From the NCBI GenBank assembly GCA_050247355.1, contig JBFWUK010000008.1, positions 114,358 to 178,357 on the forward strand: a DNA stretch of 64,000 nucleotides, in the 5' to 3' direction. The position numbers and the translations under genes were made by a program. Of this stretch, positions 927-63,922 are shown piece after piece; positions within the stretch are counted from its first letter, which is position 1; every line of letters starts with the position of its first letter. The notes under the pieces were generated by a model, which was given only the letters and a program-made list of their open reading frames with translations, was not told the origin of the DNA and made no database searches. The stretch is from Vicinamibacterales bacterium. Its GTDB lineage: Bacteria > Acidobacteriota > Vicinamibacteria > Vicinamibacterales > UBA2999.

Positions 927-1300
927 GCCTGACGGTGGTGCTGGCGGAAGACGACCCTGACATCCAGTTGGTCGCCCGTCTCGCACTCAAGCGCGCCGGC
1001 TTCACGGTGACCGTAGTTGGCAACGGCCAGGAAGCCCTCGACAGCATTCGCCGGCAGCCGCCGGACGTCGTACTGCTCGACTGGATGATGCCCGAGCTCG
1101 ACGGGCCGGAAACCTGCCGGCGGCTCAAGGCGGATCCGGCGACGGCCGACATTCCCGTGATCTTCCTGACCGCCAAGTCCCAGGAGGCAGAGATCCAGCG
1201 GGGCATGAGCCTGGGTGCCTCGGGCTACGTGACCAAACCGTTTGACGCCCTGTCACTCGGACAGCAGGTCAAGGACATCGTCGCCACCAAGAACCCGTGA
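923..1300 (+). CDS. Single-domain response regulator (CheY-like receiver)
   Basis: 125 aa. Acidic pocket AEDDPD, phospho-acceptor context VVLLDWMMPELDG, FLTAKS and YVTKPF motifs. ATGA overlap upstream and GTGA overlap with the downstream kinase. Confidence 0.85.
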   Translation: MSLTVVLAEDDPDIQLVARLALKRAGFTVTVVGNGQEALDSIRRQPPDVVLLDWMMPELDGPETCRRLKADPATADIPVIFLTAKSQEAEIQRGMSLGASGYVTKPFDALSLGQQVKDIVATKNP

Positions 1301-3990: not shown

Positions 3991-3992
3991 AG

Positions 3993-4043
3993 TCCGGCCT
4001 CAGCCGGATATCAGCGAAGGACAGGTCCCGGCTCTAGCCGGGA
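3993..4043. terminator. Two short GC hairpins between convergent genes
   Basis: tccggc-ctca-gccgga (3993-4008) and tcccggc-tcta-gccggga (4026-4043). The second overlaps the stop of the minus-strand PDZ gene. No clear U-tracts. Confidence 0.35.
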
Positions 4044-4939
4044 ATGGTGGCGGTAACCATCATCTCCCGGCGGTCCCGGATTACGCCGAGGGTCACCTCG
4101 CCGGTCAGGTCTGCCAGCTCGCGGATCACGTCATCCCCGTCGTTGACGCGAACGCCGTTCACTGACGTGATTACGTCACCGGCCTTCAGCCCCGCCTGTT
4201 CGGCCGCCGAGCCCTTGGCGACGCTCGACACCAGCGCACCGCCGTTCTTCGCACCGAAATAGTCGGCCAACTCAGTGGACAGTTCCTGCAGCGTCACGCC
4301 CAGGCGCCCACGCGACGAGCGCCGGGTAAACACGTCGGCGCGCGCGCCGTCGGGTGTGCGGAACTCGAAGCGGCGGGATTCGCGGCCGTCACGATTGTCG
4401 AACCGGTAGTTGAACTGTGGGTCCATCCGGAACTCGCGCAGGCCGCGCTCGACCTCGCGGCGCATGCGGTCGTCATCGATGTCGCGTTCCCAGCTGAACG
4501 ACCGCGCCTCGGGGGTCGCTTCAATCGTCTGCCGGTTACCGTCTCGGAGCACGGCCATGCGCACGGTGCGGCCGTCAGGCGTCTCTTGCACCAGCCGGGT
4601 GAACTGGCGGGCGCTGCGGACACGTTCGCCGTCGAACTCCACCACGATGTCGCCGGCTTTCAGGCCCGCCTTTTCGGCGGGGCTGTCCTCAGTGACTTCG
4701 TCAATCTTCACGCCGGCGCCTTGTTTGGCGTCCACGTCGCTGACGACGATGCCAAGCTGGCTCCCACGGCCGCTTGCCATGAGCGCAGTTGAAGGGTCGA
4801 GCGTGAACACGCGCGGACGGCTGGCCCTGGGCGAGCCCGAGGGGCCGGTCGGAGGGTCCTGGGCTGCCAGGCCGGCCACCGCGCCGCCGACCGAGATCAC
4901 CAGGCCCAGGCAAAACACGCCGAATTTGACGTTCTTCAT
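4034..4939 (-). CDS. Secreted protein with two PDZ domains (no protease domain seen)
   Basis: 301 aa. N-terminal signal-like segment MKNVKFGVFCLGLVISVGGAVAG. Two PDZ-like blocks (GAGVKIDEVTEDSPAEKAGLKAGDIVVEFDG and GALVSSVAKGSAAEQAGLKAGDVITSVNG). Confidence 0.7.
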   Translation of the reverse strand: MKNVKFGVFCLGLVISVGGAVAGLAAQDPPTGPSGSPRASRPRVFTLDPSTALMASGRGSQLGIVVSDVDAKQGAGVKIDEVTEDSPAEKAGLKAGDIVVEFDGERVRSARQFTRLVQETPDGRTVRMAVLRDGNRQTIEATPEARSFSWERDIDDDRMRREVERGLREFRMDPQFNYRFDNRDGRESRRFEFRTPDGARADVFTRRSSRGRLGVTLQELSTELADYFGAKNGGALVSSVAKGSAAEQAGLKAGDVITSVNGVRVNDGDDVIRELADLTGEVTLGVIRDRREMMVTATIPG

Positions 4940-5039
4940 ATGAGAGTTCTCCCTATCCGCCTAGCACTGACGTCGGAGCACGCCAGAAGGCCGGGACTTC
5001 AGTCCCGGTGTTTTGGGATGAAGACATTACAATCCGGTA

Positions 5040-6377
5040 ATGGCAAAGGGCGGGGACGAGAAGGGCAGGATCCTGGAACGGGCCGAAAAGGAACGCGTCA
5101 AGTTCCTGCGCCTGCAGTTTACGGACATCCTGGGCGTCATCAAGAACGTCGAGGTCCCCGATCGGCAGTTTGCCGATGCGCTCGACGGCAAGATCATGTT
5201 CGACGGTTCGTCGATCGAGGGCTTCGTCCGCATCGAAGAGTCCGACATGTACCTGCGCCCGGATCTGTCGACCTTCCAGGTCTTCCCATGGACCGACGCC
5301 AACGGCGCGCGGGTCGGACGCTTGATCTGCGACATTGCCAATCCCGATGGCAGTCCGTTTGCCGGCTGCCCGCGCACCACGCTGAAGAACGTGATCGCGC
5401 TGGCCGCCGCCCGCGGCTTCACCATGATGGCCGGTCCCGAAACCGAGTTCTTCCTGTTCCTGCGCCGTGACGGCCGCGCCACGACCGAGACCCACGATCG
5501 CGCCAGCTACTTCGACCTGGCGCCGATCGACCTGGGCGAGGACGTGCGGCGCGAGATTGTGATCGCCCTCGAGCAGATGGGCATTGCCGTCGAGGCCGCG
5601 CACCACGAGGTGGCACCGGGCCAGCACGAGATCGATTTTCACTACGACGACGTGCTGACGACGGCGGATAACGTGAGCACCTGCCGGTTCATCGTGAAGA
5701 ACGTGGCGCTGCGGAACAACCTGCACGCGACCTTCATGCCGAAGCCCATTTTCGGCGTGAACGGCTCGGGCATGCACACCCACCAGTCGCTGTTCGCCGG
5801 CGGCAAGAACGCGTTCTTCGATGCCGGCAACGACATCCAGCTCAGCCAGACGTGCATGAACTACGTTGGCGGACTGCTGCAGCACGCGAAGGGGTTCTGC
5901 GCCATCACCAACCCGCTGGTGAATTCGTACAAGCGCCTGGTGCCGGGCTACGAGGCGCCGACCGCGATCGCGTGGTCCGAAAAGAACCGCAGCCCGCTGG
6001 TGCGCGTGCCGGCGTCGCGCGGCGACTCGACGCGGGTCGAGTTGCGCATGCCGGATCCGTCGTGCAATCCATACCTCGCTCTGGCGGTGATGTTGCGCGC
6101 CGGCCTCGACGGCATCGACCAGAACATTGATCCGGGTCCGCCGGTCAACAAGAACATCTACAAGATGAGCCACCGCGAGCGCCGCCACTTGCGCATCGAC
6201 GACCTGCCGGCCAACCTCAGCGAGGCGCTCGATGAGTTCGAGAAGGACGCGCTCGTGAAGGAAACGCTGGGCGAGCACATCTTCACGCACTTCCTCGACG
6301 CCAAGCGCGAGGAGTGGGACGACTACATCCGCCACGTCTCGCCGTGGGAGATGGACCGCTACCTTGGCGTGTATTAG
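5040..6377 (+). CDS. glnA: Glutamine synthetase, type I
   Basis: 445 aa. GS-I signatures FDGSSIEGF, MPKPIFGVNGSGMHTHQS, NRSPLVRVP; typical length. Confidence 0.95.
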   Translation: MAKGGDEKGRILERAEKERVKFLRLQFTDILGVIKNVEVPDRQFADALDGKIMFDGSSIEGFVRIEESDMYLRPDLSTFQVFPWTDANGARVGRLICDIANPDGSPFAGCPRTTLKNVIALAAARGFTMMAGPETEFFLFLRRDGRATTETHDRASYFDLAPIDLGEDVRREIVIALEQMGIAVEAAHHEVAPGQHEIDFHYDDVLTTADNVSTCRFIVKNVALRNNLHATFMPKPIFGVNGSGMHTHQSLFAGGKNAFFDAGNDIQLSQTCMNYVGGLLQHAKGFCAITNPLVNSYKRLVPGYEAPTAIAWSEKNRSPLVRVPASRGDSTRVELRMPDPSCNPYLALAVMLRAGLDGIDQNIDPGPPVNKNIYKMSHRERRHLRIDDLPANLSEALDEFEKDALVKETLGEHIFTHFLDAKREEWDDYIRHVSPWEMDRYLGVY

Positions 6378-7111: not shown

Positions 7112-7873
7112 GTGGAAGCAATTGAACATCCCTCCCCACTAGTCGCGATCATCAACGCGATCATCGCCAGCCTTGGCATTCACGCCGAGATCCCCGACCA
7201 CATGGTCTTTGTCGGGTTGATCACGCTGTTCATCCTGTTCATCGGCCTGGCCATCCGCTCGCAGCTGAGCGTCGAGAAGCCCGGCAAGCTCCAGATCATC
7301 CTCGAGGATGTCGTTTCCTTTCTGGTCGGCGTGCTCGAAGACAACATGGGCAAGAAGGGCCGGAAGTACCTGCCGCTGCTCGGCACACTGTTCGTGTTCA
7401 TCCTGCTCGGCAACCTGATGGGCCAGGTGCCCGGCCTTGGCTCGCCCACCAGCAACATCAACGTGCCGTTTGCGTGCGCGCTCACGCTGTGGCTCTACTA
7501 TCACGCCCAGGGCGTGATCGCGAACGGGCCGGTCAACTACATCAAGCACTTCGCGGTCATGCCGGGCGTGCCGATTGCGCTGGCGCCGATGATCTTCGTA
7601 ATTGAAATCATCAGCCACCTGTCGCGCGTGCTGTCGCTGACGCTGCGCCTGTTCGGCAACATCTTCGGCGAGCACCTCGTGGTGCTGATTCTGGCCAGCA
7701 TCGTGCCGTTCATCGCGCCGCTGCCGATTCAGTTCCTGGGGTTGATCGTCGGGCCCCTGCAGGCGTTCATCTTCCTGACGCTGGGGGCCATCTACCTCAC
7801 GGCCGCCACGCACGTGGATGACCACGGCGACGAGTACGGCGGCGAACACCACGGCCCCGCCGCCGCCCACTGA
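7112..7873 (+). CDS. atpB: F0F1 ATP synthase subunit a
   Basis: 253 aa, multi-TM. Signature LSLTLRLFGNIFGEHLVV with the essential Arg; PTSNINV motif. GTG start. No atpE follows it. Confidence 0.9.
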   Translation: MEAIEHPSPLVAIINAIIASLGIHAEIPDHMVFVGLITLFILFIGLAIRSQLSVEKPGKLQIILEDVVSFLVGVLEDNMGKKGRKYLPLLGTLFVFILLGNLMGQVPGLGSPTSNINVPFACALTLWLYYHAQGVIANGPVNYIKHFAVMPGVPIALAPMIFVIEIISHLSRVLSLTLRLFGNIFGEHLVVLILASIVPFIAPLPIQFLGLIVGPLQAFIFLTLGAIYLTAATHVDDHGDEYGGEHHGPAAAH

Positions 7874-7874
7874 T

Positions 7875-7940
7875 GGGGCTTAGGGGCCTAGGGGCCTAGG
7901 GGCTTAGGGGCTTAGGGGCTTAGGGGCTTAGGGGCTTAGG
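7875..7940 (+). repeat. Tandem octamer array (GGGGCTTA/GGGGCCTA) x8
   Basis: Eight head-to-tail 8-nt units counted directly (7875-7938) plus a trailing gg. Starts 2 nt after the atpB TGA. Followed by a C-rich partner, accccaggtccctaggaccccaggacc (7951-7977). Confidence 0.95.
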
Positions 7941-7976
7941 ATTCTTCAAGACCCCAGGTCCCTAGGACCCCAGGAC

Positions 7977-9761
7977 CTACTGATTAATCTTTACGACGAC
8001 GACCGTCCGGTCGTCTGACTGCTCGGCGTCGCCGCAGAAGTGCTGCACGGCGCCGAAGATCTCCGCGACTATCTCTTTCGCCGGCCGCGCGTGCGTGCGC
8101 TCGATTACCTCGAGCAGGCGCGGCGAGCCGAATTCACGGCCGGCCTCGTCGAACGCCTCGGAGATGCCGTCGGAAAAGAACACGAACACGTCGCCCGGCG
8201 CCAGCGGTGCCTGGACCTCGTCGTAACTGGAGCTGCCGAATGAGCCGAGCGGCACGCCCGGCATGTCGATCTGGGTCGCCCGGCCGCCGCTGCAGCGCAC
8301 CGGGTACGGCAGCCCGGAATTGGCGAACGTCACGATCTGCTTCTTGAACTCGAACATCGCGTAACACAAGGTGCAGTAGTACTCCTCGAGGTTGCGCTCG
8401 TGGAGAATGCGGTTCATGCCCGCCAGCACGCTGGCCGGGGTGCTGCGTTCCTTCTCGAGCCGGCGGCGGAAGGTGCGGCCGCGCACCATCTCGCCGATCG
8501 CGGCGCCGTACAGGGCCGCGGGCACGCCCTTGCCCGACACGTCGCCGACCGCCACCACCAGCGTATTGGGTTCTGGCGCCAGGAAGTCGCACAGGTCGCC
8601 GCCCAGCTCGCGCGCCGGGTCGAAGTGCCATGCCACGTCGACGCCGCGCAGGCGCTTGGGCAGCTCCTGGGGCAGCAGCGCCATTTGCACGCGCTTGGCG
8701 AAGCGCAGTTCCTTCTCGAACCGTGCCTCGTTGGCGCGCACCGAGTCGTAGAGGCGCGCGTTCTCGAGCGCGACCGCCGCTTCCGACGCCAGCAGCGTGA
8801 GCAGCTTGACGTGCTTCTTGTTGAAGGCGTCGCGCTCGGGGCTTTCCAGGTCGAACACGCCGATGCAGCGGTCCTTGAGCATCAGCGGGATGACCAGTTC
8901 CGAGCGCACGCCCGGCACCGCCTGGATGTAACGCGGATCCTTGAGCACGTCGGGAACCAGCACCACTTCCTTGTGCAGCGCGGCGTAGCCGACCAGGCCT
9001 TCGCCGAGCTTGACCGGCTCCATGGCCGCCGGGTCGTCGCCGTACTTGATGGCCACCTTCATCTCGAGCATGCCGCTGTCGTCGTCCAGCAGCAGGATGC
9101 CGAAGATGCGGTAATCGATGACCCGCTTGATGAGATGCGCCAGCCGGGTCAGCAGCTCGTCGGGGTCGAGAATGGCGGTCATCTCGCGGCCGATCTCGGC
9201 CAGCGTCTCGAGGGTCTCGGCGTACTCGCGCTCCGACTCGAACAGCCTCGCCGTAGCGATGCCCTGCGCCACGTGAGCGCCGAACTGCCGCAGGATCCAC
9301 TCGTCGCGCTCGGTGAACGCGCCGGTCTGATCGCTCAGCAGGTTGAGCGCGCCAATCACCTTGCCCTTGTTGCGCAGCGGCACCGCCAGTTGCGATTTGG
9401 CCCCGGGCACGACGGCCAGGTAGCGGGAATCGGAATCGACGTCGTTCAGCAGGATCGGCCGCTGCTCGGCGACGGCGGTGCCGACAATGCCCTGGCCGAC
9501 CTGGAGCGTGAAATGGCGGACGATCTCGTCGGGATAGCCCATCGCGTAGGCAATGCTGAGCTCCTCGCGCTGCTCGTCGAGGAGATAGACCGAGAAGACC
9601 GTGAACTTGGTGAGCCGGGAGATGAGTTGGGGAATGCGCTCGAGAAGCTCGTCGAGGTCGAGCACCGAGCTGACCTCGCGTCCCAGCTCCGCGAGAATCG
9701 CCAGCATCTCGGCGTCGGAAGTGGAACTGCTGGCGGCGCCCAGCGGCGCGGATTCAGTCAT
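7977..9761 (-). CDS. GAF-GAF-PP2C (SpoIIE/RsbU-type) serine phosphatase
   Basis: 594 aa. Two GAF-like blocks, then a PP2C/SpoIIE region (GGDLCDF...VAVGDVSGKGVPAAL...FFSDGISEA...DDRTVVVVK). Confidence 0.85.
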   Translation of the reverse strand: MTESAPLGAASSSTSDAEMLAILAELGREVSSVLDLDELLERIPQLISRLTKFTVFSVYLLDEQREELSIAYAMGYPDEIVRHFTLQVGQGIVGTAVAEQRPILLNDVDSDSRYLAVVPGAKSQLAVPLRNKGKVIGALNLLSDQTGAFTERDEWILRQFGAHVAQGIATARLFESEREYAETLETLAEIGREMTAILDPDELLTRLAHLIKRVIDYRIFGILLLDDDSGMLEMKVAIKYGDDPAAMEPVKLGEGLVGYAALHKEVVLVPDVLKDPRYIQAVPGVRSELVIPLMLKDRCIGVFDLESPERDAFNKKHVKLLTLLASEAAVALENARLYDSVRANEARFEKELRFAKRVQMALLPQELPKRLRGVDVAWHFDPARELGGDLCDFLAPEPNTLVVAVGDVSGKGVPAALYGAAIGEMVRGRTFRRRLEKERSTPASVLAGMNRILHERNLEEYYCTLCYAMFEFKKQIVTFANSGLPYPVRCSGGRATQIDMPGVPLGSFGSSSYDEVQAPLAPGDVFVFFSDGISEAFDEAGREFGSPRLLEVIERTHARPAKEIVAEIFGAVQHFCGDAEQSDDRTVVVVKINQ

Positions 9762-9776
9762 TGTGTGGTTACTATT

Positions 9777-9828
9777 TCAACACGAAGGCCACGAAGGACA
9801 CGAAGGCTTTCGTGGTCTTCGTGTTGAA
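9777..9828. repeat. Hairpin made of CACGAAGG 9-mers
   Basis: ttcaacacgaaggccacgaagg-acacgaagg-ctttcgtggtcttcgtgttgaa. About 22-bp stem with 2 mismatches. Lies between the peptidase stop (9834) and the phosphatase start (9761). Confidence 0.8.
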
Positions 9829-9833
9829 CAACG

Positions 9834-11966
9834 TCATTGGGCCGAGGTTTTCGTGGCTGCGTCGCCGAGGGTGTACTTCGTCACCCAGTCGTAGATCCGC
9901 TGCATGCGGTCCTTCTGATGATAGTACTCGCTAATGCCGTGGCCTTCGCGCGGGTAAAACACCAGTTCGGTGGGCTTGCCGCGGTCCTTCAGTCCGCGAA
10001 ACAGTTCCTGCGCCTGCCCGACCGGCACCCGCTCGTCGTTGGCGCCGTGCAGGATCAGGGTGGGCGTGGTGACCTTGTCGATGTGTGACATCGCCGATCG
10101 CTCGAGGTACAGCGGCAGCGTCTTCGCGTTTGGAATGCCGCCGAAGTAGCTGATCAGCACGCTGGGAATGTCGTTGGTCCCGTACATGCTCCACATGTTG
10201 GTCAGGCCGGCGCCGACCATGGCCGCCTTGAAGCGGCTGGTCTGCGTGATCACCCACGCCGTCATGTAGCCGCCGTAGCTCCAGCCGATGTGCGCCAGCT
10301 TGTCGGGGTCGGCAATGCCGCGGGCAACCAGCGCGTCCACCCCGGTGATGATGTCCCGGTAGTCGCCGCCACCCCAGTCGTTGAGGTTGTGCTGCAGGAA
10401 CTTCTCGCCGTAGTTCGTGCTGCCGCGGGGGTTGGGGTAAAACACCGCCCAGCCCTTGTTGGCCCACACCTGGCCGCCTTCGAGGCCGCCCAGGCGGAAG
10501 CCGTTGACGTACGCCCCCGCCGGACCGCCGTGCGCCACGACCAGCGTCGGGTACTTGGTGCCGGCCGCGAAGCCCACCGGCTTGAGCAGGACCCCCTCCA
10601 CTTCCACCCCGTCGGCCCCCTTCCAGGTGACGACCTCGGTGTCGCCCTGCGACAACCCGGCAAGCTGGGGGTTGGTGGTGGTCAACTGGCGGAAGGTCTG
10701 GTACGCCGGATCGGTGACGTAAACCTCCGAGGCGGAGTTCGGCGTGTCCATGGTCAGCGCGATGGTCCGGCCATCCCTGCTGATCGATGTGCCCTGCAGC
10801 GTCTTGCGGGTGCTCAACTGCGTGTAGCGGCCGGTGGTGAGGTCGTAGGCAAACGCCTCGTTATAGGCGCGCTTGCCGGCGACGAACACCACGCGGTTGC
10901 CTTCCGCCGTCCACACCGGGTTGCCGGCGTCGGTGTCGAAGTCCGGCGACGACACATCCTTGGCAGACTTGGCGGCGACGTCGTACAGCATCAGCTTCGA
11001 GTGCATGGTGACGCCGGGCGCGGTGCCGTCTGGCAGCGGCGGCCCGGAATAGGGTTCGGCGGTCCACACGATCGACTTGCCGTCGGGCGACCAGCGCGGC
11101 GAGGTGTCGCTGCCGAAGTTGGTGCTGATCTTCTCGACCCGCTTCGACGCCACGTCGGCCAGGTAAATGTCGCGGCGGTTGTCGCGCAGCATCGGCGTGG
11201 CGCCGGCGCCGAACACGAACCGCTGGCTGTCGGGTGCCCACGACGGCGCGCCGGCCACGGTGTAGTCCTTGCCCTCGGTAATCCTCGTCGCCGCATCGGC
11301 AACGAAATGCGGCCCTACTGGCACGATCCAGATGTGCGCGTGGCGGAAGTCGCCTTCGAACACCCGCTCGTCATCGCGCTTCCTGATGGCGGCTTCTTCG
11401 TCGGCGCTGCGGGCGTCGGTGGCGACAAATGCGATGCGCGAAGCGTCGGGCGCCCACGAGTAGCTGGAGACGTTCTCCTTGCTGTCGGTCAGCCGCCAGG
11501 CTTCGCCGCCGTCCGCGCGCATGACGTAAATCTGCGCCTTGACCTCGTCGCCGGCACCACGGGCCGAGACGAAGCTGATGTGGCGGCCGTCGGGCGACCA
11601 CTGGGGCTGGCTGTCGCCTTTCGCGCCGAAGGTAATCTGGCGAGCCGGGCTGGAGCCATTGGTGGCCACCTGCCAGATGTGGGTGCGCGCCTCCATGCGG
11701 CCCGCCCCGAGCGACGCTTGCGCGCCCGCAAGCGGAGTCGAAGGGTCGCGCTCGGGCACCCACTGCCGCACGGTGTAGAGCACCTGGCTGCCGTCGGGCG
11801 AAATGGTGGCGCCGGCCACGGCTTTCACGGCGAGCACGTCATCGAAGGTGACCGGCCGCTTGTTCTGGGCTGACGCCGATGAGGTGAGCGCCAGGGCGAG
11901 GACGACAAACCTGAAGGTGTGTCGCCACGCGGCGGTGTGTCGCCCGCGGGTGGGGGTGGTGTGCAT
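9834..11966 (-). CDS. S9 family serine peptidase with N-terminal beta-propeller
   Basis: Catalytic Ser motif GWSYGGY. TolB/WD-like repeats (SPDG...FV) in the N-terminal half. Start moved to ATG 11966 (MHTTPTRG... then signal-like FRFVVLALALTSSASA), because the longer ORF would overlap fabZ. Confidence 0.85.
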   Translation of the reverse strand: MHTTPTRGRHTAAWRHTFRFVVLALALTSSASAQNKRPVTFDDVLAVKAVAGATISPDGSQVLYTVRQWVPERDPSTPLAGAQASLGAGRMEARTHIWQVATNGSSPARQITFGAKGDSQPQWSPDGRHISFVSARGAGDEVKAQIYVMRADGGEAWRLTDSKENVSSYSWAPDASRIAFVATDARSADEEAAIRKRDDERVFEGDFRHAHIWIVPVGPHFVADAATRITEGKDYTVAGAPSWAPDSQRFVFGAGATPMLRDNRRDIYLADVASKRVEKISTNFGSDTSPRWSPDGKSIVWTAEPYSGPPLPDGTAPGVTMHSKLMLYDVAAKSAKDVSSPDFDTDAGNPVWTAEGNRVVFVAGKRAYNEAFAYDLTTGRYTQLSTRKTLQGTSISRDGRTIALTMDTPNSASEVYVTDPAYQTFRQLTTTNPQLAGLSQGDTEVVTWKGADGVEVEGVLLKPVGFAAGTKYPTLVVAHGGPAGAYVNGFRLGGLEGGQVWANKGWAVFYPNPRGSTNYGEKFLQHNLNDWGGGDYRDIITGVDALVARGIADPDKLAHIGWSYGGYMTAWVITQTSRFKAAMVGAGLTNMWSMYGTNDIPSVLISYFGGIPNAKTLPLYLERSAMSHIDKVTTPTLILHGANDERVPVGQAQELFRGLKDRGKPTELVFYPREGHGISEYYHQKDRMQRIYDWVTKYTLGDAATKTSAQ

Positions 11967-12003
11967 CAAGTCCTCCAAGGGGCGAAGTATAATTCCGATC
12001 TTC

Positions 12004-12450
12004 ATGGACATTGCACTGCCGCTGGACATCACGGCGATCGAGCGGATTCTGCCCCATCGCTCGCCGTTCCTGCTCGTCGACCGCATCACCGAACTCGAGC
12101 CGGATCAGCGGATCGTGGGCATCAAGAACGTCTCGACGAACGAGCCCTACCTCAGCCGGCCCGGCCCCGGCGGACGGCCAACGCTGCCGCCGACCATCCT
12201 GACCGAGTGCGTGGCCCAGGTCGGCGCCATCCTGATCCTGGCGAAGCCCGAGAACAAGGGCATGCTGATCTTCTTTCGCGGCATGGAGCGGGTCCGCTTC
12301 CGCGCCCCGGTGCACGTCGGCGACCAGGTGATCATCGAGGCGCGCGTCAAGCGCCTCAAGAGCCGTATGGGCGTACTCGAAGGCCGGGCACGCGTCGGCA
12401 AGAAAGTGGTCATCCACGGCACCATGACCTTCGCGCTCGGTTCGGAATGA
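12004..12450 (+). CDS. fabZ: 3-hydroxyacyl-ACP dehydratase
   Basis: MDIALPLDITAIERILPHRSPFLLVDRI...: the canonical FabZ N-terminus with catalytic His. 148 aa from the internal ATG of ORF 11803..12450. Confidence 0.9.
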   Translation: MDIALPLDITAIERILPHRSPFLLVDRITELEPDQRIVGIKNVSTNEPYLSRPGPGGRPTLPPTILTECVAQVGAILILAKPENKGMLIFFRGMERVRFRAPVHVGDQVIIEARVKRLKSRMGVLEGRARVGKKVVIHGTMTFALGSE

Positions 12451-28463: not shown

Positions 28464-29499
28464 TGATGTCTGCATCCGAAAGATGCGTGTCGGTGGGGAG
28501 GTCACGCGTGGCCGTCTTGCCGAGCAGATCCTCGTATCGTTCCGCCGGAATGGCGCCGGTGCCGGGGCGCTTGACCCACAGGTTCTGCTTCGTAAACGCT
28601 TCACCGGCCCTGATCGCCTGGATGGTCACGACCGTCGCAAACGCGAAGTCCATCGTCACCTGCTCTTCCCGCACCGGGCCCTTGGAGCCGCCCAGCTCGG
28701 CGTGCAGGGTCTTCGCCGCTTCGATCAGCTCGCGACAGCGAATTTCGTCCATGGAGCACACGATGTCGGGGCCGCTACGTTGCATGTGGTCGGTGAAGTG
28801 CCGCTCGACAATCGACCCGCCCAGCGCCATGGCGCCGATGCAGGCGATGTTGTCGGTCGTGTGGTCGGACAGGCCGATGACCGCCTTCGGAAAGGCCTGG
28901 CCGAGCTCGACCATCGCGCCCAGGCGGACCAGGTGCGGTGGTGTCGGGTAGAGGTTGGTGGTGTGCAGCAGCGCGCACGGCGTGCCGGCCTGCTCGAAGA
29001 TCGCCACCGCCTTGGCGACGCTGGCAATCGTGTTCATGCCGGTGCTGAGAATGGTCGGCTTGCCGAACGAGGCGATGTGTTTCAGCAGCGGGTAGTTGTT
29101 GCACTCGCCGGAGCCAATCTTGTAGGCGGGCACCTTCATGCGCTCGAGCCGGTCCGCTGCCGCTCGCGAGAAGGGCGTGCTCATGAAGACCATGCCCTTC
29201 GACTCGACATAATCCTTCAGCGCCCGCTCATCGTCTTCGGAAAGCGCGCACCGCCGCATGATCTCGTAGATCGACACCGTGGCGTTGCCCGGCACCACGT
29301 TCTTGGCCGCACCGCTCATCTCGTCTTCGACGACGTGGGTCTGGTGCTTGACGACCTCGACGCCCGCGCGGGCCGCCGCATCGACCATTTCGCGAGCGAC
29401 CTCGAGGCGGCCCTCGTGGTTGATGCCGATTTCGGCAACGACCAGTGGCACGTGCGCGGGCCCGACCTTGCGGCCGGCGATGATGATTTCTGGCGTCAT
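28456..29499 (-). CDS. neuB: N-acetylneuraminate (sialic/nonulosonic acid) synthase family
   Basis: 347 aa. VVAEIGINHEG N-terminal NeuB motif and a C-terminal SAF domain. The exact sugar cannot be told. Confidence 0.8.
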   Translation of the reverse strand: MTPEIIIAGRKVGPAHVPLVVAEIGINHEGRLEVAREMVDAAARAGVEVVKHQTHVVEDEMSGAAKNVVPGNATVSIYEIMRRCALSEDDERALKDYVESKGMVFMSTPFSRAAADRLERMKVPAYKIGSGECNNYPLLKHIASFGKPTILSTGMNTIASVAKAVAIFEQAGTPCALLHTTNLYPTPPHLVRLGAMVELGQAFPKAVIGLSDHTTDNIACIGAMALGGSIVERHFTDHMQRSGPDIVCSMDEIRCRELIEAAKTLHAELGGSKGPVREEQVTMDFAFATVVTIQAIRAGEAFTKQNLWVKRPGTGAIPAERYEDLLGKTATRDLPTDTHLSDADIRG

Positions 29500-30554
29500 T
29501 CGATAGGCAACCCTAAGGGGTTGCCTCCACCTTTCCGAAAGAAGAAGGCGTCAATCAGCCGCTCGACTTCCCGAATCGTCTTCGCCGCGTTGATGCCGAT
29601 GCGGAACTGCGCTCCGCCCTCGAAGCCTTTCGTGTACCACGCGCACAAGGCGCGGAGTTTGTTGATGACCCAGCGCTCCTTCGAAGCCTCGGCGCGCGGC
29701 GGCGTGGATTGCGCCACCAGATGCCTGAACCCGTCCTGCTCACCCTTCTCGTCGGCCAGCAGCAGCGCCATGTAATCGAGCAGGAACTGGCCGCGCTCTT
29801 CGGCGGCAATCTGGCGGGCGGGCCGGCCGGCCATCAGGTCGCGCGCCTGCGCCAGTATCCAGGGGTTGCGCAACACACCGCGGCCCACGAACACACCGCT
29901 GACACCAGAACGCATGCGCGCGACGATGTCTTCCGGCTCGATGCAGTCGCCCGATCCGAACACCGGAATGCTCACCGCGCGGGCGATGCCGGCGACGACA
30001 TCCCAATCCGCCAACCCGCTGTAGCTTTGCTTGGCGGTGCGACCGTGCACGGCAATCGCCGAAGCGCCGGCCGCCTCGACGTGCTTCGCCAGCTCCGGGG
30101 CGTTGACCTCGCCATCGTCCCATCCCTTGCGCATCTTGACGGTGACCGGGATCTTCACGGCGCGCGTCATCGCGGCGATGATCTCCGCGGCCTGATGCGG
30201 TTCGCGCATCAGGCTGCAGCCGGCGTTGTGCTTGGCGATTTTCGGGACCGGGCAGCCCATGTTGACGTCGACGATGTTCGCGCCCATGGCCTCGACGACG
30301 CGCGCGGCTTCAGCCATCTTGGCCGGCTCGCCGCCGAAGATCTGGATCGAGACGGGGCGTTCTTCCTCGGTGTATTCGGCGTACTCGAGCGTGCGATCGA
30401 TGCCGCGGACCAGGCCCTCGCTGCTGACCATTTCAGAGACCACGAGGCCGCAGCCGCCCTGGCGCTTGACCAGGCGGCGAAAGGCGGTGTCGGTCATGCC
30501 CGCCATGGGCGAGACGACGAACGGCGAGTCGAGTTCGATGCTGCCGATCTTCAT
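29496..30554 (-). CDS. tRNA-dihydrouridine synthase
   Basis: 352 aa. SPMAGMTDTAFRRL, DVNMGCP and VKMRKGWD motifs of the Dus family. ATGA overlap with neuB. C-terminal tail contains a palindromic repeat. Confidence 0.85.
   Translation of the reverse strand: MKIGSIELDSPFVVSPMAGMTDTAFRRLVKRQGGCGLVVSEMVSSEGLVRGIDRTLEYAEYTEEERPVSIQIFGGEPAKMAEAARVVEAMGANIVDVNMGCPVPKIAKHNAGCSLMREPHQAAEIIAAMTRAVKIPVTVKMRKGWDDGEVNAPELAKHVEAAGASAIAVHGRTAKQSYSGLADWDVVAGIARAVSIPVFGSGDCIEPEDIVARMRSGVSGVFVGRGVLRNPWILAQARDLMAGRPARQIAAEERGQFLLDYMALLLADEKGEQDGFRHLVAQSTPPRAEASKERWVINKLRALCAWYTKGFEGGAQFRIGINAAKTIREVERLIDAFFFRKGGGNPLGLPIE
29505..29526. repeat. 22-nt palindrome AGGCAACCCTAAGGGGTTGCCT (family copy 1, in the dus 3' end)
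   Basis: Read on the minus strand as GGC AAC CCC TTA GGG TTG CCT = G N P L G L P, 3 codons before the dus stop. Confidence 0.9.
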
Positions 30555-30698: not shown

Positions 30699-31190
30699 TC
30701 AATAGGGCTTCACGTCTGAGGCGTCTACTTCCACCGCCACGGCCTGGCCGATCAAGTCAACCGAAAGCACCAGCCGCGCGTGCGCGCCCTTGCGGACCAG
30801 GCGGCCGACCACGCCGCGCAGCGGGCCATGGGTCACCTTGACCATGTCGCCTTCCTTGATCAGCGGCACCGGATCGTACGCCAGTTCGCTTTCCACCAGC
30901 GTCCGGATGCTCTCGATCTCCTGATCGGGAATCGACGACAGCACGCCGTTGTTGCTGATGATCTGGACGACGCCGTCGACCTTCAGGACGCCGATGCGCT
31001 CATCGGGAACGAAACGGGCGAACACGTAACCCGGGAACAAAGGCCAGTCGATCTTCTTCTTGCGATCTTTCCAGTGGCTCCACTTGCCGATGGTCGGCAG
31101 GAAGACCTCGACGTGCTTCTTGGTGAGTTGGTCGCGCACCTGTTTCTCGTGCCGCGACCGCGTCCAGAGGGCAAACCACTGGGGATCCAT
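30699..31190 (-). CDS. NusG paralog (UpxY/RfaH-like transcription antiterminator)
   Basis: NGN WFALWTRSRHEKQVRDQL...FPGYVFA and KOW GDMVKVTHGPLRGVVGRLV. Only ~163 aa, and not in a ribosomal or secE context. ATG 31190 preferred over TTG 31199. Confidence 0.75.
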   Translation of the reverse strand: MDPQWFALWTRSRHEKQVRDQLTKKHVEVFLPTIGKWSHWKDRKKKIDWPLFPGYVFARFVPDERIGVLKVDGVVQIISNNGVLSSIPDQEIESIRTLVESELAYDPVPLIKEGDMVKVTHGPLRGVVGRLVRKGAHARLVLSVDLIGQAVAVEVDASDVKPY

Positions 31191-31193
31191 GTC

Positions 31194-31215
31194 AGGCAAC
31201 CCTAACGGGTTGCCT
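31194..31215. repeat. 22-nt palindrome AGGCAACCCTAACGGGTTGCCT (family copy 2, intergenic)
   Basis: Lies 3 nt upstream of the nusG-like ATG and downstream of the SurA-like stop. Confidence 0.9.
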
Positions 31216-31238
31216 CCGCCGCAAGGTTGGCCTCCATG

Positions 31239-36581: not shown

Positions 36582-36599
36582 GTCCGCCTGAAGGCGGAC
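36582..36599. repeat. REP-like hairpin GTCCGCC-TGAA-GGCGGAC + tail GCTACAT
   Basis: Fills the 33-nt wzt/rfaE2 spacer. Confidence 0.85.
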
Positions 36600-36605
36600 G
36601 CTACA

Positions 36606-38889: not shown

Positions 38890-38943
38890 GTCCGGCTAAA
38901 GCCGGACGCCACATTGGCATGTAGCATCCGCCTTTAGGCGGAT
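38890..38943. repeat. Two REP-like hairpins in the atpC/wzm spacer
   Basis: gtccggc-taaa-gccggac + gccacattgg (38890-38917), and atccgcc-ttta-ggcggat (38926-38943). Confidence 0.85.
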
Positions 38944-39365: not shown

Positions 39366-40917
<1,552 letters not shown>

Positions 40918-40918
<1 letters not shown>

Positions 40919-43329: not shown

Positions 43330-43340
43330 AAGCTTCTTGG

Positions 43341-43463
43341 GTCCGCCTAAAGGCGGACGCTACATCCCCACCAATGTGGTGTCCGGCTTCAGCCGGACCT
43401 TGCTGGTCCCACTAATGTGGCGTCCGGCTTAACCGGACTGTGCCAGTCCGCCTGAAGGCGGAC
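43341..43463. repeat. BIME-like cluster of four REP-like hairpins (atpH/atpA spacer)
   Basis: Hairpins at 43341-43358 (+gctacatcc), 43381-43398 (preceded by ccaatgtggt), 43422-43438 (preceded by ctaatgtggc) and 43446-43463. Orientations alternate. Confidence 0.88.
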
Positions 43464-43464
43464 T

Positions 43465-44007
43465 CTACTTGACTAACTCCTGCCTCAGCCGCTGCAACTG
43501 CGTGCGCACGCTGCCGTCGTACACCGTGCTGCCAATCGTCGCCACCACCCCGCCAAGCAGCTCGGGATCGACGCGGACCGATAGATCCACCTGCTTGCCG
43601 GTCACCTTGCCGAGGCTGTCGGCCAGCGCCTTCGTCTTCTCGGGCGACAGGGCCACCGCGCTGGTCACTTCGGCGCGGACAATGTTCTGGTGCTTGAGCA
43701 GCCGATCGCGAAAGGCGGCCGCGAGCTCGGGAATGAAGGCGAGCTTGCGGCTTTGCGCCAGCAACACCAGCAGCTTCTTCACCGGCGCGCTCAGGCTCAT
43801 CTTGTCGGCGACCGCTTCCATCAGCGACTGGCGGGCGGCGTCGGTCACGCCGCTGCGGCCCGAGGCGTCGGCCAGCTCGGGGCTGGCGCTCATCATGGCG
43901 ACCACGGCCTGCAGGTCGCGATCGATTTGCGCGAGGTCGTTCTTCTCCTCGAGGGCGACGTCGAACAGCGCTTTGGCGTAGCGATTGGCCGAAGTTCTCA
44001 GCGACAT
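43465..44007 (-). CDS. atpH: F1 ATP synthase subunit delta (OSCP)
   Basis: 180 aa. RYAKALFDVALEE N-terminus and OSCP-like C-terminus. TAATG overlap with atpF. Confidence 0.85.
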   Translation of the reverse strand: MSLRTSANRYAKALFDVALEEKNDLAQIDRDLQAVVAMMSASPELADASGRSGVTDAARQSLMEAVADKMSLSAPVKKLLVLLAQSRKLAFIPELAAAFRDRLLKHQNIVRAEVTSAVALSPEKTKALADSLGKVTGKQVDLSVRVDPELLGGVVATIGSTVYDGSVRTQLQRLRQELVK

Positions 44008-55790: not shown

Positions 55791-57215
55791 GTGATGCCGA
55801 GCGTGACCATTTGGGACCAGGTCCTGAGCCGAATCGAAGATCAGGTCGGCCGGCATAGCTTCTCGACCTGGTTCAAGCCGACCACCCTTCTGGCGGACGC
55901 CGGCCAGACCCTCTCGATTCGCGTTCCCAACCTCCTGTTCGTGGAATGGCTGCCCAAGCACTACTCGGTCGTGCTGGCCGAGGCCATGCGCGAGGTCGGC
56001 CGGCCGGGCGCTAAGCTGGTGTTCGTGCCAGACGGTGCGGCCTCCGGTGGCGCGGCCTCCGGTGGAGACACCCCTTCAGGGTGGCATGCGGCGGCCAACA
56101 CCCCAGGCAACGCTAAAGGGTTGCCTCAACCAGATCACGGCACGGAGGGTCAGGGCGCCAGCGTCCAGGTCACCAGTTCAGAAGCGGAACCGCTGCGCGC
56201 CGGCAGCCTGATCCCCCGCTACACCTTCGACACCTTCATCGTCGGGCCCTCGAACCAGTTCGCTCACGCCGCCTGCCGCGCCGTGGCCGAGACACCGTCG
56301 CGTTCGTATAACCCGCTGTTCATACACGGCGGCGTCGGCCTGGGCAAGACGCATTTGATGCATGCGATCGGGCATTACGTGGTTCAGCACCATCCCGGCC
56401 TCGTGCTCACGTATATCTCGTCCGAACGTTTCATGAACGAGATGATCAATGCGGTGCGGTTCGATCGCATTCTGGATTTCCGGTCGCGCTATCGCAGCGT
56501 CGACGTGCTGCTCGTCGACGACATCCAGTTCGTCTCCGGCAAGGAAGGCACGCAGAACGAGTTCTTCCACACCTTCAACGCGCTGCACGATGCCCAGAAG
56601 CAAATCGTCATCAGCAGCGACCGTCCGCCACATGAAATTCCCGCGCTCGAAGAGCGCCTGCGCTCGCGGTTCGAGTGGGGATTGATTGCCGACATCCAGT
56701 CGCCGGACCTCGAGACGAAGGTCGCCATTCTGAAGAAGAAGGCCGAAGGCGAGGCGCTGCAGTTACCCGATCACGTGGCGATGTACATGGCGACGCGGAT
56801 CAAATCGAACATCCGCGAACTGGAAGGGTCGCTGATTCGCCTGATCGCCTACGCCTCGCTCACCAGCAAGCCGCTGACCATCGAACTGGCGCAGGACGTG
56901 CTCAGGAACGTCATCGATCACGACGAGAAGGCCGTCACGATCGAACAGATCCAGAAGTTTGTTGCCGACTACTACCAGATGAAGCCGACTGAGATCCGGT
57001 CGCGCAACAACTCGAAGTCGGTGGCGATGCCGCGCCAGATTGCGATGTACTTGTGCAAGGCATTGACCCATGCGTCGCTGCCGGAGATTGGCCGGAGCTT
57101 TGGCGGCAAGCACCACTCGACGGTGATCCACTCGATCAAGAAAGTCGAGGAAATGCGCAAGAAAAGTGCTGAATTTGATCAGCAGGTGAAGAACCTGCTC
57201 GATCAGTTCAAATAG
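55791..57215 (+). CDS. dnaA: Chromosomal replication initiator protein DnaA
   Basis: 474 aa. Walker A GGVGLGKTHL, box VII, C-terminal DNA-binding signature IAMYLCKALTHASLPEIGRSFGGKHHSTVIHS. Confidence 0.97.
   Translation: MMPSVTIWDQVLSRIEDQVGRHSFSTWFKPTTLLADAGQTLSIRVPNLLFVEWLPKHYSVVLAEAMREVGRPGAKLVFVPDGAASGGAASGGDTPSGWHAAANTPGNAKGLPQPDHGTEGQGASVQVTSSEAEPLRAGSLIPRYTFDTFIVGPSNQFAHAACRAVAETPSRSYNPLFIHGGVGLGKTHLMHAIGHYVVQHHPGLVLTYISSERFMNEMINAVRFDRILDFRSRYRSVDVLLVDDIQFVSGKEGTQNEFFHTFNALHDAQKQIVISSDRPPHEIPALEERLRSRFEWGLIADIQSPDLETKVAILKKKAEGEALQLPDHVAMYMATRIKSNIRELEGSLIRLIAYASLTSKPLTIELAQDVLRNVIDHDEKAVTIEQIQKFVADYYQMKPTEIRSRNNSKSVAMPRQIAMYLCKALTHASLPEIGRSFGGKHHSTVIHSIKKVEEMRKKSAEFDQQVKNLLDQFK
56105..56126. 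repeat. 22-nt palindrome AGGCAACGCTAAAGGGTTGCCT (family copy 3, inside the dnaA linker)
   Basis: Translated GGC AAC GCT AAA GGG TTG CCT = G N A K G L P, within the low-complexity domain II region. Confidence 0.9.
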
Positions 57216-61324: not shown

Positions 61325-63922
61325 ATGCAAACTGAGCAGACCCGCACGCCCGTAAATATCGAAGACGAGATGAAGCGCTCGTACCTGGATTACGCCATGA
61401 GCGTAATCATCGGGCGGGCGCTGCCTGACGTCCGCGACGGCCTCAAGCCCGCTCACCGCCGCGTGCTCTATGCGATGAGCCAGATGGGGCTGGCGTCGAA
61501 CCGCGCCTACCGCAAGTGCGCCAAGGTCATCGGCGAAGTCATCGGCAATTACCACCCGCACGGCGACCAGCCGGCCTACGACACCCTGGTGCGGCTGGCG
61601 CAGGACTTCAACATGCGCAAGACCCTGGTCGACGGCCAGGGTAACTTCGGTTCGGTCGATGGCGACCCGCCGGCGGCGTATCGCTACACCGAAGCGCGGC
61701 TCGAGGCCCTGGCCGAGAGCCTGATGGAAGACCTCGACAAGGACACCGTCGACTACGTTCCGAACTTCGACGAGACGACCACCGAGCCGACGGTGTTCCC
61801 GGCGACGTATCCGAACCTGCTGGTCAACGGGTCGACCGGCATCGCCGTCGGCATGGCCACCAACATCCCGCCGCACAATCTCGGCGAGGTGATCGACGGC
61901 GTCATCTGGATCATCGAGAACACGCTGATGGGTCAAGGCAACCCTAAAGGGTTGCCTCCACAAGAGAGCGGCGATACCGATGCTGGGGGCGCCCCTGCCG
62001 CTGGTGCCGAAGGCGGTGGTGCCCATGCCGTCCAGTACACCCGCGAGCAGAAGCTCAAGGAACTGATCCGGCTCATTCCGGGCCCCGACTTCCCGACCGG
62101 CGGGCTGATCGTCGGCAAGCGCGGCATCCACGAGGCGTATCTCACCGGCCGCGGCTCCATCCAGGTCCGTGCCAAGACCGAGATCGAAACCACCAAGAAG
62201 GGCGATCGCCAGCAGATCATCGTCCACGAGATTCCATATCAGCTGAACAAGACCAGGCTGCTGGAACGCATCGCCGAACTGGTCCGCGACAAGGCGCTCG
62301 AAGGCATCTCCGACCTGCGCGACGAGTCGGATCGCGACGGCATGCGCATCGTGATCGAGCTGAAGCGCGGCGAAGTCGGCGAGGTGGTGCTGAACAACCT
62401 CTACAAGCAGACGCAGCTGCAGCAGTCGTTCGGTATCATCACGCTGGCGATCGTGGCGGGCCGGCCGAAGGTGCTCAACCTGCTCGAGGTGATCGAGCAG
62501 TTCATCGATTTCCGCCGCGAAGTCGTCCGCCGCCGCATCGAGTTCGAACTGCGCAAGGCCGAGGCCCGCGCGCATATTCTCGACGGCCTCAAGATCGCCC
62601 TCGACCACCTCGACGCGGTGATCAAGCTGATTCGCGGCTCGAAGAACCCGCCGGAAGCCAAGGCCGGCCTGGTCACGCAATTCGGCCTGTCTGAGATCCA
62701 GGCGCAGGCGATTCTCGACATGCAGCTGCAGCGCCTGACCGGCCTGGAGCGCGACAAGATTCTCGGCGAGCTGGCGGAGTTGACCGCCCTGATCGCGAAG
62801 CTCAAGAACATCCTCGCCAACCAGCCGTTGCTGCTGCAGATCATCCTCGACGAGCTGCGGGCGGTGAAAGCGAAGTTCGCCGATCCGCGCCGCACGCAGT
62901 TGATCGAGGACGAGGGCGAACTCAGCATCATGGACCTGATCGCCGACGAAGACGTCGCGATCTCGGTCACCGATACCGGTTACATCAAGCGCACGCCGAT
63001 CACGACCTATCGCACGCAGAACCGCGGCGGCAAGGGCCGCATCGGCATGCGCAAGCGCGACGAGGATGTCGTCAATCACCTGTTCGTGGCCTCGACGCAC
63101 TCGTTCCTGGTGGTGTTCTCGGATCGCGGCCGCGCCTACTGGCTGAAGGTTCACGAGATTCCCGACGTCGGCGCCGACGGCCGCGGCAAGTCGGTGGCCA
63201 ACCTGGTGCAGATGGAGGCCGGCGAGAAGATTGCCGCCATGCTGGCGATCAAGGAATTCGACGACCGGCACTTCATTGTCATGGGCACCCGCAAGGGCAC
63301 CATCAAGAAGACCGAACTGTCGGCGTTCTCGAACCCGCGGGCCGGCGGCATCATCGCCATGGGCATCGACGAGGGCGACGCCGTCATCGACGTGCAGATG
63401 TCCGACGGCCAGAGCGAGATCTTCATCGGCACCAGGGACGGCAAGGCCATCCGCTTCGTCGAGGCTGACGTGCGCGGCATGGGCCGGACCGCCTTCGGCG
63501 TGCGCGGCATCCAGCTGCGCGAAGGCGACGAAGTGGTAGCGATGCAGGTCGCTAAACCGGGCGGCACGCTGCTGACCGTCACCGAGAAGGGCTACGCCAA
63601 GAACACCGCCCTCGACGAGTATCGCGTCACCGGCCGCGGCGGCCTGGGCGTGAAGAACGTCGAGGTGACCGAGAAGAATGGACCGGTGGTGGCCATCACC
63701 CAGGTCCACGACAACGAAGAGTTGCTGGTGATTACCGAGCAGGGCAAGATCCTGCGGACGGCCGCCAACGAGATCCGGACCATTGGCCGCGCCACCCAGG
63801 GCGTGCGGCTGATGGACCTGGAAGGCGAAGACAAGATCGTGTCGGTGGCCTTGGTCGAGAAGGCCGAAGAAGAACCCGCGATGCCACCCCCTGGCAGCGC
63901 ACCAGGAGACACGCAACCATGA
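61325..63922 (+). CDS. gyrA: DNA gyrase subunit A
   Basis: 865 aa. [27 protein letters not shown], active-site [11 protein letters not shown]-terminal beta-pinwheel repeats. Contains a ~40-aa insertion with a palindromic repeat. Confidence 0.97.
61936..61957. repeat. 22-nt palindrome AGGCAACCCTAAAGGGTTGCCT (family copy 4, inside gyrA)
   Basis: Translated GGC AAC CCT AAA GGG TTG CCT = G N P K G L P. Confidence 0.9.

Follow-up and report, generated by a model that had tools for sequence, protein, structure and literature searches.

A probable GTAG-tagged REP family with copies translated in frame within gyrA and dnaA of a Vicinamibacterales bacterium

The analysis of a 64,000-nucleotide stretch of contig JBFWUK010000008.1 from a Vicinamibacterales bacterium (hereafter, the window) focused on a palindromic repeat that is translated in frame within gyrA. 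The palindrome is very probably a member of a GTAG-tagged family of repetitive extragenic palindromes (REPs) in the Vicinamibacterales and related Acidobacteriota, and was inserted into gyrA as an inverted pair. The window GyrA is identical to the protein of an NCBI metagenome-assembled genome (MAG), GCA_050186845.1. The gene and its REP-derived features were the following.

61325 to 63922, plus strand: gyrA, an intact open reading frame (ORF) of 865 aa, from the ORF list and its translation, with full Pfam architecture
61931 to 62035, plus strand: REP-derived insertion block, gyrA codons 203 to 237, in place of 5 codons in empty-site relatives
61936 to 61961, minus strand: REP copy 1, hairpin at 61936-61957 and tag at 61958-61961 (CCAC on the plus strand, GTGG on the minus strand)
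61962 to 62015, no strand assigned: spacer between the REP copies, a simple sequence that evolves fast and has many Gly, Ala and Asp codons
62016 to 62029, plus strand: what is left of REP copy 2, with its GTGG tag at 62016-62019, then TGCCCATGCC, then GTC CAG TAC

The first-pass annotation of the window had reported four near-identical 22-nt palindromes, and this count was confirmed. The 22-mer AGGCAACCCTAANGGGTTGCCT is present in four copies; the gyrA copy AGGCAACCCTAAAGGGTTGCCT occupies 61936-61957, and the others, which start at 29505, 31194 and 56105, differ from it by one mismatch each. Eight strand-wise matches were observed in the window, with 0.00 expected from 100 dinucleotide-preserving shuffles. 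The hairpin stood up to analysis but the 22-nt size did not, as the unit is 26 nt long and consists of a GT[AG]G tag that stays unpaired, followed by a 9-bp stem closed by a TTYA loop (consensus GT[AG]G-AGGCAACCC-TT[CT]A-GGGTTGCCT). Folding gave a 9-bp stem and a 4-nt loop, with energies of -16.7 to -18 kcal/mol and z-scores of -2.8 to -4.6. The first gyrA copy folds in this way at -17.6 kcal/mol (z = -4.6), and this short hairpin is the only one that still forms at the gyrA insert of the window. According to the literature, an unpaired GTAG-type tag beside a short GC-rich hairpin marks the GTAG superfamily of REPs (PMC3733652). The other stems AGGCGACCC, GGGCAACCC and GGACAAACC define subfamilies with an unchanged tag and loop, which are likewise dispersed.

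The unit did not conform to other classes of short repeat. An intrinsic terminator has a GC-rich hairpin followed by a T-run, and the acidobacterial copies had no T-run. A miniature inverted-repeat transposable element spans 70-300 bp, ends in terminal inverted repeats and is flanked by a target-site duplication, while the present unit is 26 nt and its conservation ends 1-2 nt past the tag. No target-site duplication was seen at the filled sites. There were no Rfam matches at the gathering score anywhere in the window.

Species-representative genomes were scanned with the untagged pattern AGGCAACCC-NNNN-GGGTTGCCT and metagenomes with the 26-mer; the copy counts are those among the matches listed and represent lower bounds. 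Both scans showed a strong enrichment of the motif in the Vicinamibacterales lineage, most copies being intergenic and of the same sequence as the coding ones, and at least hundreds of exact 26-nt copies were found in independent assemblies. With the untagged pattern, the copies in Vicinamibacterales and other Acidobacteriota had no T-run, carried GTGG or GTAG on one side, and had a TTCA or TTTA loop in that orientation. The palindrome was placed between an A-run and a T-run in the matches from other phyla, among them those in Bacteroidota and Clostridia. On the evidence of these flanks, the matches outside Acidobacteriota are ordinary terminators and chance matches that are unrelated to the REP.

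The Pfam analysis of the window GyrA showed a DNA_topoisoIV match of 525 bits, broken into two stretches by the insert, and six GyrA_C blades. An insertion of about 40 aa had been proposed at this site. Its presence was borne out, while its size depends on the comparison: residues 200-243 of the query, a stretch of 44 residues, have no counterpart in solved structures, which have a 3-4 residue turn there (B. subtilis GyrA 4DDQ, residues 202-205), and relative to empty-site close relatives 35 codons replace 5, a net gain of 30 aa. A predicted structure of GyrA residues 1-542, made with 29 close relatives, had a mean predicted local distance difference test score (pLDDT) of 48.7 and was too poor for use. 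In an alignment of 120 GyrA relatives (85-100% identical), the stretch between ENTL(M/L) and Y/F-x-REQKLKEL was hypervariable, with the following states.

No insert: for example ENTLMSDSATYSREQK and ENTLLGGAEVSREQK
REP-type peptide: GNPKGLP, GNPSGLP, DKPKGLS, DEPKGSS, GDPKGSP, GESKDSP or GTPKGVP
Gly/Ala-rich or other low-complexity insert without the palindrome: GAGQAGQAGGAGGAGR (P0006) and GSGATSASGDDSNPKPQAPSPV (P0011)

The gyrA of locus L231 was empty, with the sequence CTG ATG GGC GGC GAG GTC ACC TTT AGC, as were those of many other relatives, so that orthologs with neither the insert nor the palindrome exist. The closest comparison was locus L107, in which GyrA is 99% identical to that of the window and gyrB is 98.1% identical in DNA. 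The L107 gyrA carries an inverted REP pair with the tags facing, which reads AGGCAACCCTAAAGGGTTGCCT-CCAC, 39 nt, then GTGG-GGGCAACCCTTCAGGGTTGCCC-GTC CAG TAC. Its second copy, GTGG-GGGCAACCC-TTCA-GGGTTGCCC, lies at the site of the window remnant, and the pair folds as one long hairpin (-68.7 kcal/mol, z = -6.1). A REP pair was also present in L108, with a longer spacer built of 12-nt tandem units, and the length and sequence of the spacer vary among the window, L107 and L108. The gyrA of L109 has a pair with the stem CGACAAACC. Single REPs with other stems were identified in L110 (AGGCGACCC), L233 (AGGCGAGTC) and L234 (CGGCACCCC), and L232 has a tagless hybrid copy, as expected from a deletion between the left arms of two REPs. 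All of the first gyrA copies start at one nucleotide, at which perfect 9-bp stems of five sequences were found in diverged lineages. The insert states were patchy on a neighbour-joining tree of GyrA, which was weakly resolved at this divergence. The insert was common to independent NCBI, JGI and ENA assemblies.

Compared with these alleles, the window gyrA insert reads as a decayed inverted REP pair, of which one half survives. The first-pass annotation had correctly placed one copy in gyrA but had overlooked the inverted remnant at 62016-62029, as well as a further copy in dnaA at 56062-56087. In-situ compensatory evolution was considered as the source of the differing stems at the gyrA site and was set aside as unneeded, since the stems are dispersed subfamilies. 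In L107, gyrB (7358-9947) is split into two ORFs, and disruption by a REP was rejected as the cause; the split is due to one additional G within a G-run, compared with the window. The additional G, on a JGI contig, is probably a sequencing or assembly error that is unrelated to REPs.

The other copies of the 22-mer in the window, and the second REP in dnaA, were as follows.

55791 to 57215, plus strand: dnaA, with Pfam DnaA_N at residues 6-67 and Bac_DnaA at residues 142-300
56062 to 56087, plus strand: degenerate dnaA REP, GTGG-AGACACCCC-TTCA-GGGTGGCAT
56105 to 56130, minus strand: dnaA REP with one stem mismatch and the tag degraded to GTTG
29505 to 29530, minus strand: REP in dus, within the last 11 codons of the gene and 5 nt before the ATG of a NeuB-like gene
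31194 to 31219, minus strand: intergenic REP with the tag GCGG, 3 nt before the ATG of a NusG-like gene

The two dnaA REPs have their tags outward and lie in the linker between DnaA_N and the ATPase domain, with their peptides at approximately residues 91-113. The orthologous copies are better kept in L107 (AGGCAACCC-TTCA-GGGTTGCAT) and in L108 (GTGG-AGGCAACCC-TTCG-GGCTTGCCT). Both copies occur in the window, in L107 and in L108, one copy is present in L232, and none is present in L231, L233 or L234, the linkers of which are unrelated in sequence. A second REP pair, in decay, is thus present in the dnaA linker.

The palindrome is translated as G-N-P-K-G-L-P in gyrA, G-N-A-K-G-L-P in dnaA and G-N-P-L-G-L-P in dus, where the peptide ends two codons ahead of the stop codon. 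Translation thereby bore out the proposed gyrA reading and the frame shared by the three genes, and the proposal that one frame in each orientation contains a stop codon was also correct (AGG CAA CCC TAA, and ..CTT TAG on the opposite strand). The copy at 31194 is intergenic, between a stop codon and the NusG-like ATG. The tags in the window were GTGG, GTGG, GCGG and GTTG, those of the 22-mer copies on the minus strand being GTGG, GCGG or GTTG.

The distribution of the element was assessed in a census of 217 distinct tagged copies, taken from 1.2 Mb of loci among the matches listed; the extraction pattern required the tag, so that, as regards the tag, the census informs on the mix only. The genes in the loci were called by our own codon-usage model, trained on long window genes. 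On the window, the caller recovers rpmH-rnpA-yidD-yidC, dnaA, dnaN, gyrB and gyrA, the names being taken from the Pfam annotation of the overlapping contig L001. The copies comprised 111 that were intergenic, 49 that overlapped a gene end, 49 that were firmly inside high-scoring genes and 8 that were doubtful (4 near a predicted start and 4 in low-scoring ORFs). As the REP loci are 90% coding and the intragenic share of copies is ~23%, the element is strongly depleted from genes, yet far from excluded. The extragenic copies mostly adjoin stop codons, with 177 flanks facing stops and 114 facing starts. In addition, the REP itself supplies the stop codon of 23 genes that end on the stem-loop TGA (…AGG CAA CCC TGA) and of 7 that end on the TAG of the other orientation. 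The element often rewrites C-termini and provides stop codons.

All 49 internal copies are read in the single frame GGC AAC CCN NNN GGG TTG CCT, 25 of them as GGGNP[S/L]GLP and 24, in the other orientation, as GNP[K/E]GLPP. At least two frames were open for every internal copy, and the null probability of a one-frame result is at most 0.5^49. Three copies were in another frame and are probably upstream of the true gene start, because each lies within 52 nt of the predicted one. The tag mix in the tabulated classes was 183 GTGG and 30 GTAG. The internal copies all carried GTGG (49, against 0 GTAG), compared with 86 GTGG and 25 GTAG among the intergenic copies (Fisher p = 7e-5). There were 27 neighbouring pairs within 200 nt, of which 18 were inverted with the tags inside, 1 was inverted with the tags outside and 8 were in tandem.

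The host genes were checked by translating and reading ten ORFs from metagenome loci, with Pfam analysis of seven of these and of one host from a genome locus. The conserved hosts confirmed by Pfam were Mfd, leucyl-tRNA synthetase, gamma-glutamyltranspeptidase, penicillin amidase, a molybdopterin oxidoreductase, an FtsX-type permease and a helicase. One more host, judged by its translation only, resembled a non-ribosomal peptide synthetase. A protein search with a 52-aa concatenation of REP peptides returned no scored match.

Several host loci showed changes in the REP-derived sequence itself. In a molybdopterin oxidoreductase (L224, 6504-8807; L121, 1357-3699), a half-REP peptide is expanded in tandem, and in a different gene (L211, 11630-11729) there are three tandem full REPs with a 39-nt period, all of which are translated. 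The REP-derived sequence behaves like a coding microsatellite. Among helicases with RNase_H_2 and AAA domains, L178 has a REP at residue 340, where L197 is empty, and the reverse holds at residue 700, where only L197 has one; these are independent insertions into one protein family. At L084 (413-3425), the same REP pair with near-identical flanks precedes each of two permease paralogs in tandem (586-3234 and 3452-6037), which differ at two positions within their first 60 residues. The REP-containing intergenic DNA was therefore duplicated along with the gene. Among the matches listed from the genomes, the MAG CAZJBN01 (L005-L081) had more contigs with REPs than any other, at least 19, and it carries the record title 'uncultured Bifidobacteriaceae bacterium'. 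This label is probably wrong, because the REP family and the sequence context resemble those of the Vicinamibacterales loci.

Further REP-like units were identified in the window. A second family, GT[AG]G-N-GTCCGSC-TTYA-GSCGGAC, shares the tag and loop, has another stem, and is present in nine copies, all intergenic.

36582-36604, 38890-38912, 38921-38943, 40836-40858 and 40896-40918: second-family REPs, intergenic
43341-43363, 43376-43398, ~43405-43430 and 43445-43468: second-family REPs, intergenic

Four of these copies, which alternate in orientation, are clustered within a gap of 135 nt (43330-43468) in an arrangement that resembles a bacterial interspersed mosaic element (BIME). A single REP-like unit on the minus strand at 11903-11928, GTGG-CGACACACC-TTCA-GGTTTGTCG, has one stem mismatch and is akin to the subfamily with the stem GACAAACC. 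This unit falls within the part of an S9-type peptidase ORF (9834-12011) that encodes the N-terminal signal-peptide region, and is read in another frame as RHTFRFV, which places positive residues ahead of the hydrophobic core. At the NeuB-like and NusG-like genes (29497-29530 and 31188-31222, minus strand), the tag and the start of the stem form GGAGG, a Shine-Dalgarno-like sequence that is half inside the hairpin and ~30 nt from the start codon. This may be a coincidence. A role of the REP as a Shine-Dalgarno-plus-hairpin translation element was rejected, as the REP-to-start distances across all loci had no sharp peak, unlike the REP-to-stop distances. The GC skew across the 64 kb, examined for REP orientation relative to the direction of replication, gave no usable signal.

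Intragenic REPs with a GTAG tag were described by Di Nocera, De Gregorio & Rocco 2013 (BMC Genomics 14:522; PMC3733652), who reported them inside ORFs as singles of ~7 aa and dimers of 20-30 aa. The same study reported ~70 intragenic cases in Opitutus terrae, many in replication/repair genes, a GTRG degeneracy of the tag, with GTGG in most of the O. terrae GTAG-20 units, and translation of the O. terrae REPs in several frames (GTGVPPV, WHGRPAR, TGGTPVP and HGRDARAT) (PMC3733652). The GTAG REPs were listed there for Proteobacteria, Cyanobacteria, Chloroflexi and the PVC group, and for Acidobacteria only tyrosine transposases flanked by terminal inverted repeats (TIRs) were listed (PMC3733652). 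Neither gyrA nor dnaA was found in its tables of intragenic-REP hosts (PMC3733652). The present family resembles the GTAG superfamily in its length, which is within the 20-40 bp of such repeats, its GT[AG]G tag at one end, stems within the range of 6-9 bp, short loop and several stem subfamilies per genome, as well as in its inverted dimers with spacers of 20-100 bp, the location of most copies near gene 3' ends, the provision of some stop codons and the minority of copies in ORFs. The tags-inside arrangement of 18 of the 27 pairs corresponds to TT in the nomenclature of PMC3733652. The present family is unlike the O. terrae REPs in that one frame is used by 49 of 49 internal copies, and no associated transposase gene was found here.

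In the REPIN/RAYT system (Nunvar et al. 2010; Bertels & Rainey 2011), REP doublets are reportedly mobilised by REP-associated tyrosine transposases (RAYTs), the genes of which typically have REPs on their flanks. The system is summarised in PMC3733652. As in a REPIN, two inverted REPs form one long hairpin in the L107 gyrA, and the singletons in the window gyrA and dnaA look like decayed doublets. Unlike REPINs, which are described as extragenic, ~23% of the copies here are inside genes, and a RAYT gene was not located in the sampled 1.68 Mb. The GC-rich hairpins, the GTAG-type tag and the clusters of alternating orientation, seen here in the second window family, are also features of the E. 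coli REP/BIME. However, the E. coli elements are essentially extragenic and have longer imperfect stems, and are reported to bind gyrase and to stabilise mRNA.

These features make the following course of events very probable. A non-autonomous hairpin repeat would have spread through the genome, and an inverted REP pair, with the tags facing and a spacer of ~40-75 nt, would have inserted into gyrA. The target would have been a turn of few residues at the protein surface, which follows the NLGEVIDG…ENTLM helix and precedes the next conserved segment. The insertion would have kept the frame open, giving a translated loop rich in Gly, Pro, Asn and Ala that was presumably neutral, or nearly so, for gyrase function. 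In the window genome, the first gyrA REP is still intact and the second has decayed by deletion and substitution, with the same decay in the dnaA domain I-III linker. More generally, insertions seem to land in any frame and to be sorted by selection afterwards, such that copies with the loop stop codon in frame would survive only at gene 3' ends. The survivors would be those between genes, those at gene ends, where a stop is harmless, and those inside genes at permissive loops and linkers in the G-N-P-x-G-L-P frame, which is open on both strands and encodes turn-forming residues. After the insertion, the pair evolves fast through spacer slippage and deletions between the arms; changes in the REP pair were visible between strains that are 98-99% identical elsewhere. 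The chances seem even that the element is mobilised by an HUH tyrosine transposase of the RAYT type, which would act in trans on hairpins of single-stranded DNA, as the tag and hairpin signature accompanies such genes in the published families.

Some observations weigh against this interpretation. No RAYT/Y1 homologue was found by tblastn with the nine RAYT and TIR-flanked transposase (TIRYT) queries of PMC3733652 (E<=0.01) in 1.68 Mb, comprising the window and 230 loci, a sample that may miss a gene present in one to a few copies per genome; a regular-expression search of the called genes for RAYTs also found nothing. The link to a transposase is therefore drawn from the tag and hairpin signature. 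Neither a clean target-site duplication nor an exact empty-versus-filled junction could be reconstructed, and the alleles differ by 18-21 nt net, not 26. The surface location of the insert follows from the alignment of the sequence to solved structures, and the gene calls in the loci come from our own codon-usage caller, with Pfam analysis of eight hosts only.

A more far-reaching proposal is that the REP sequence has been shaped so that the Gly-Asn-Pro-x-Gly-Leu-Pro turn, encoded by the one frame open on both strands, does no harm. A hairpin transposon could thereby settle in coding DNA, essential replication genes among it, at a frequency (~23% of its copies) well beyond that of classical REPs. 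In addition, the five stems at one gyrA position would have come from re-insertion directed to that site, or from the replacement of one REP by another where a hairpin already stood, and not from one old insertion. We put this forward tentatively and consider it doubtful.

Domestication of the hairpin in gyrA and dnaA, either as a site that gyrase binds or cleaves or as an mRNA structure that adjusts the expression of supercoiling and replication genes, is improbable. E. coli REPs are reported gyrase targets and REPs have been proposed as RNA elements, and the published intragenic REPs are enriched in replication/repair genes (PMC3733652); the five perfect 9-bp stem sequences at one gyrA nucleotide in diverged lineages would also fit such a function. 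However, close relatives (L231 and many further proteins) lack the element and its distribution over the GyrA tree is patchy, decay in the window affects the second copy in gyrA as well as both of those in dnaA, and the same element is present in dozens of unrelated genes. Moreover, the variant stems are dispersed subfamilies, so replacement or re-insertion accounts for the differing stems without selection at the site.

It is very improbable that GNPxGLP is a linker or recognition peptide under selection at the protein level, with the DNA palindrome as a by-product. The peptide does recur in many proteins and always in one frame, but half of the copies are intergenic with the same nucleotide sequence, the codons are invariant at synonymous positions and the non-translated GT[AG]G tag is conserved. 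Furthermore, the middle residues differ by orientation (K/E compared with S/L), as a DNA palindrome predicts.

Local slippage or expansion in gyrA with a coincidental resemblance to the repeat, or an artefact of assembly or binning, is scarcely credible as the source of the insert. The simple sequence of the spacer, its expansion by 12-nt tandem units in L108 and the many relatives with Gly/Ala-rich inserts at the gyrA site without a palindrome are consistent with slippage, which accounts for the evolution of the spacer but not for the REPs. No matches were expected by chance in the window, and the exact 26-nt copies in independent assemblies, together with the presence of the gyrA insert in NCBI, JGI and ENA contigs, argue against both slippage and artefact.

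Finally, Rickettsia palindromic elements (RPEs; Ogata et al. 2000, cited in PMC3733652) are palindromic repeats found in frame in functional, often essential, protein genes, and repeats of this type have a CGTC tag and no associated transposase (PMC3733652). The first-pass annotation had likened the gyrA insert to these elements, and the likeness holds for the in-frame invasion of an essential gene by a dispersed palindrome, as in-frame insertion into housekeeping genes is typical of RPEs (PMC3733652), and gyrA, dnaA, dus and the 49 internal copies show in-frame insertion, with an extra peptide at permissive, predicted surface positions. Membership of the RPEs or of the CGTC-tagged family has next to no probability, since the tag in the examined copies is GT[AG]G and not CGTC, the 26-nt unit is far shorter than RPE-1, and RPE hosts are obligate intracellular alphaproteobacteria, a lineage other than the free-living high-GC soil bacteria here.

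In-frame intragenic REPs, common in replication/repair genes, are already published (PMC3733652). What is new is the phylum, the hosts gyrA and dnaA, the ~23% intragenic share, the single-frame and GTGG-only rules, and the one gyrA position that is repeatedly taken by different subfamilies. The findings extend the GTAG-type REPs to the Acidobacteriota (Vicinamibacterales), a group that is abundant in soil and poorly represented in culture, and illustrate the depth to which such repeats penetrate coding DNA, with translated hairpin repeats in GyrA, DnaA, LeuRS and Mfd. The single-frame rule, with stop-containing frames at gene ends only, represents a clean natural experiment on how selection filters the insertions of a mobile element. 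The inserts mark insertion-tolerant protein loops, and such hypervariable indels in the marker genes gyrA and dnaA can mislead alignments, phylogenies and strain typing.

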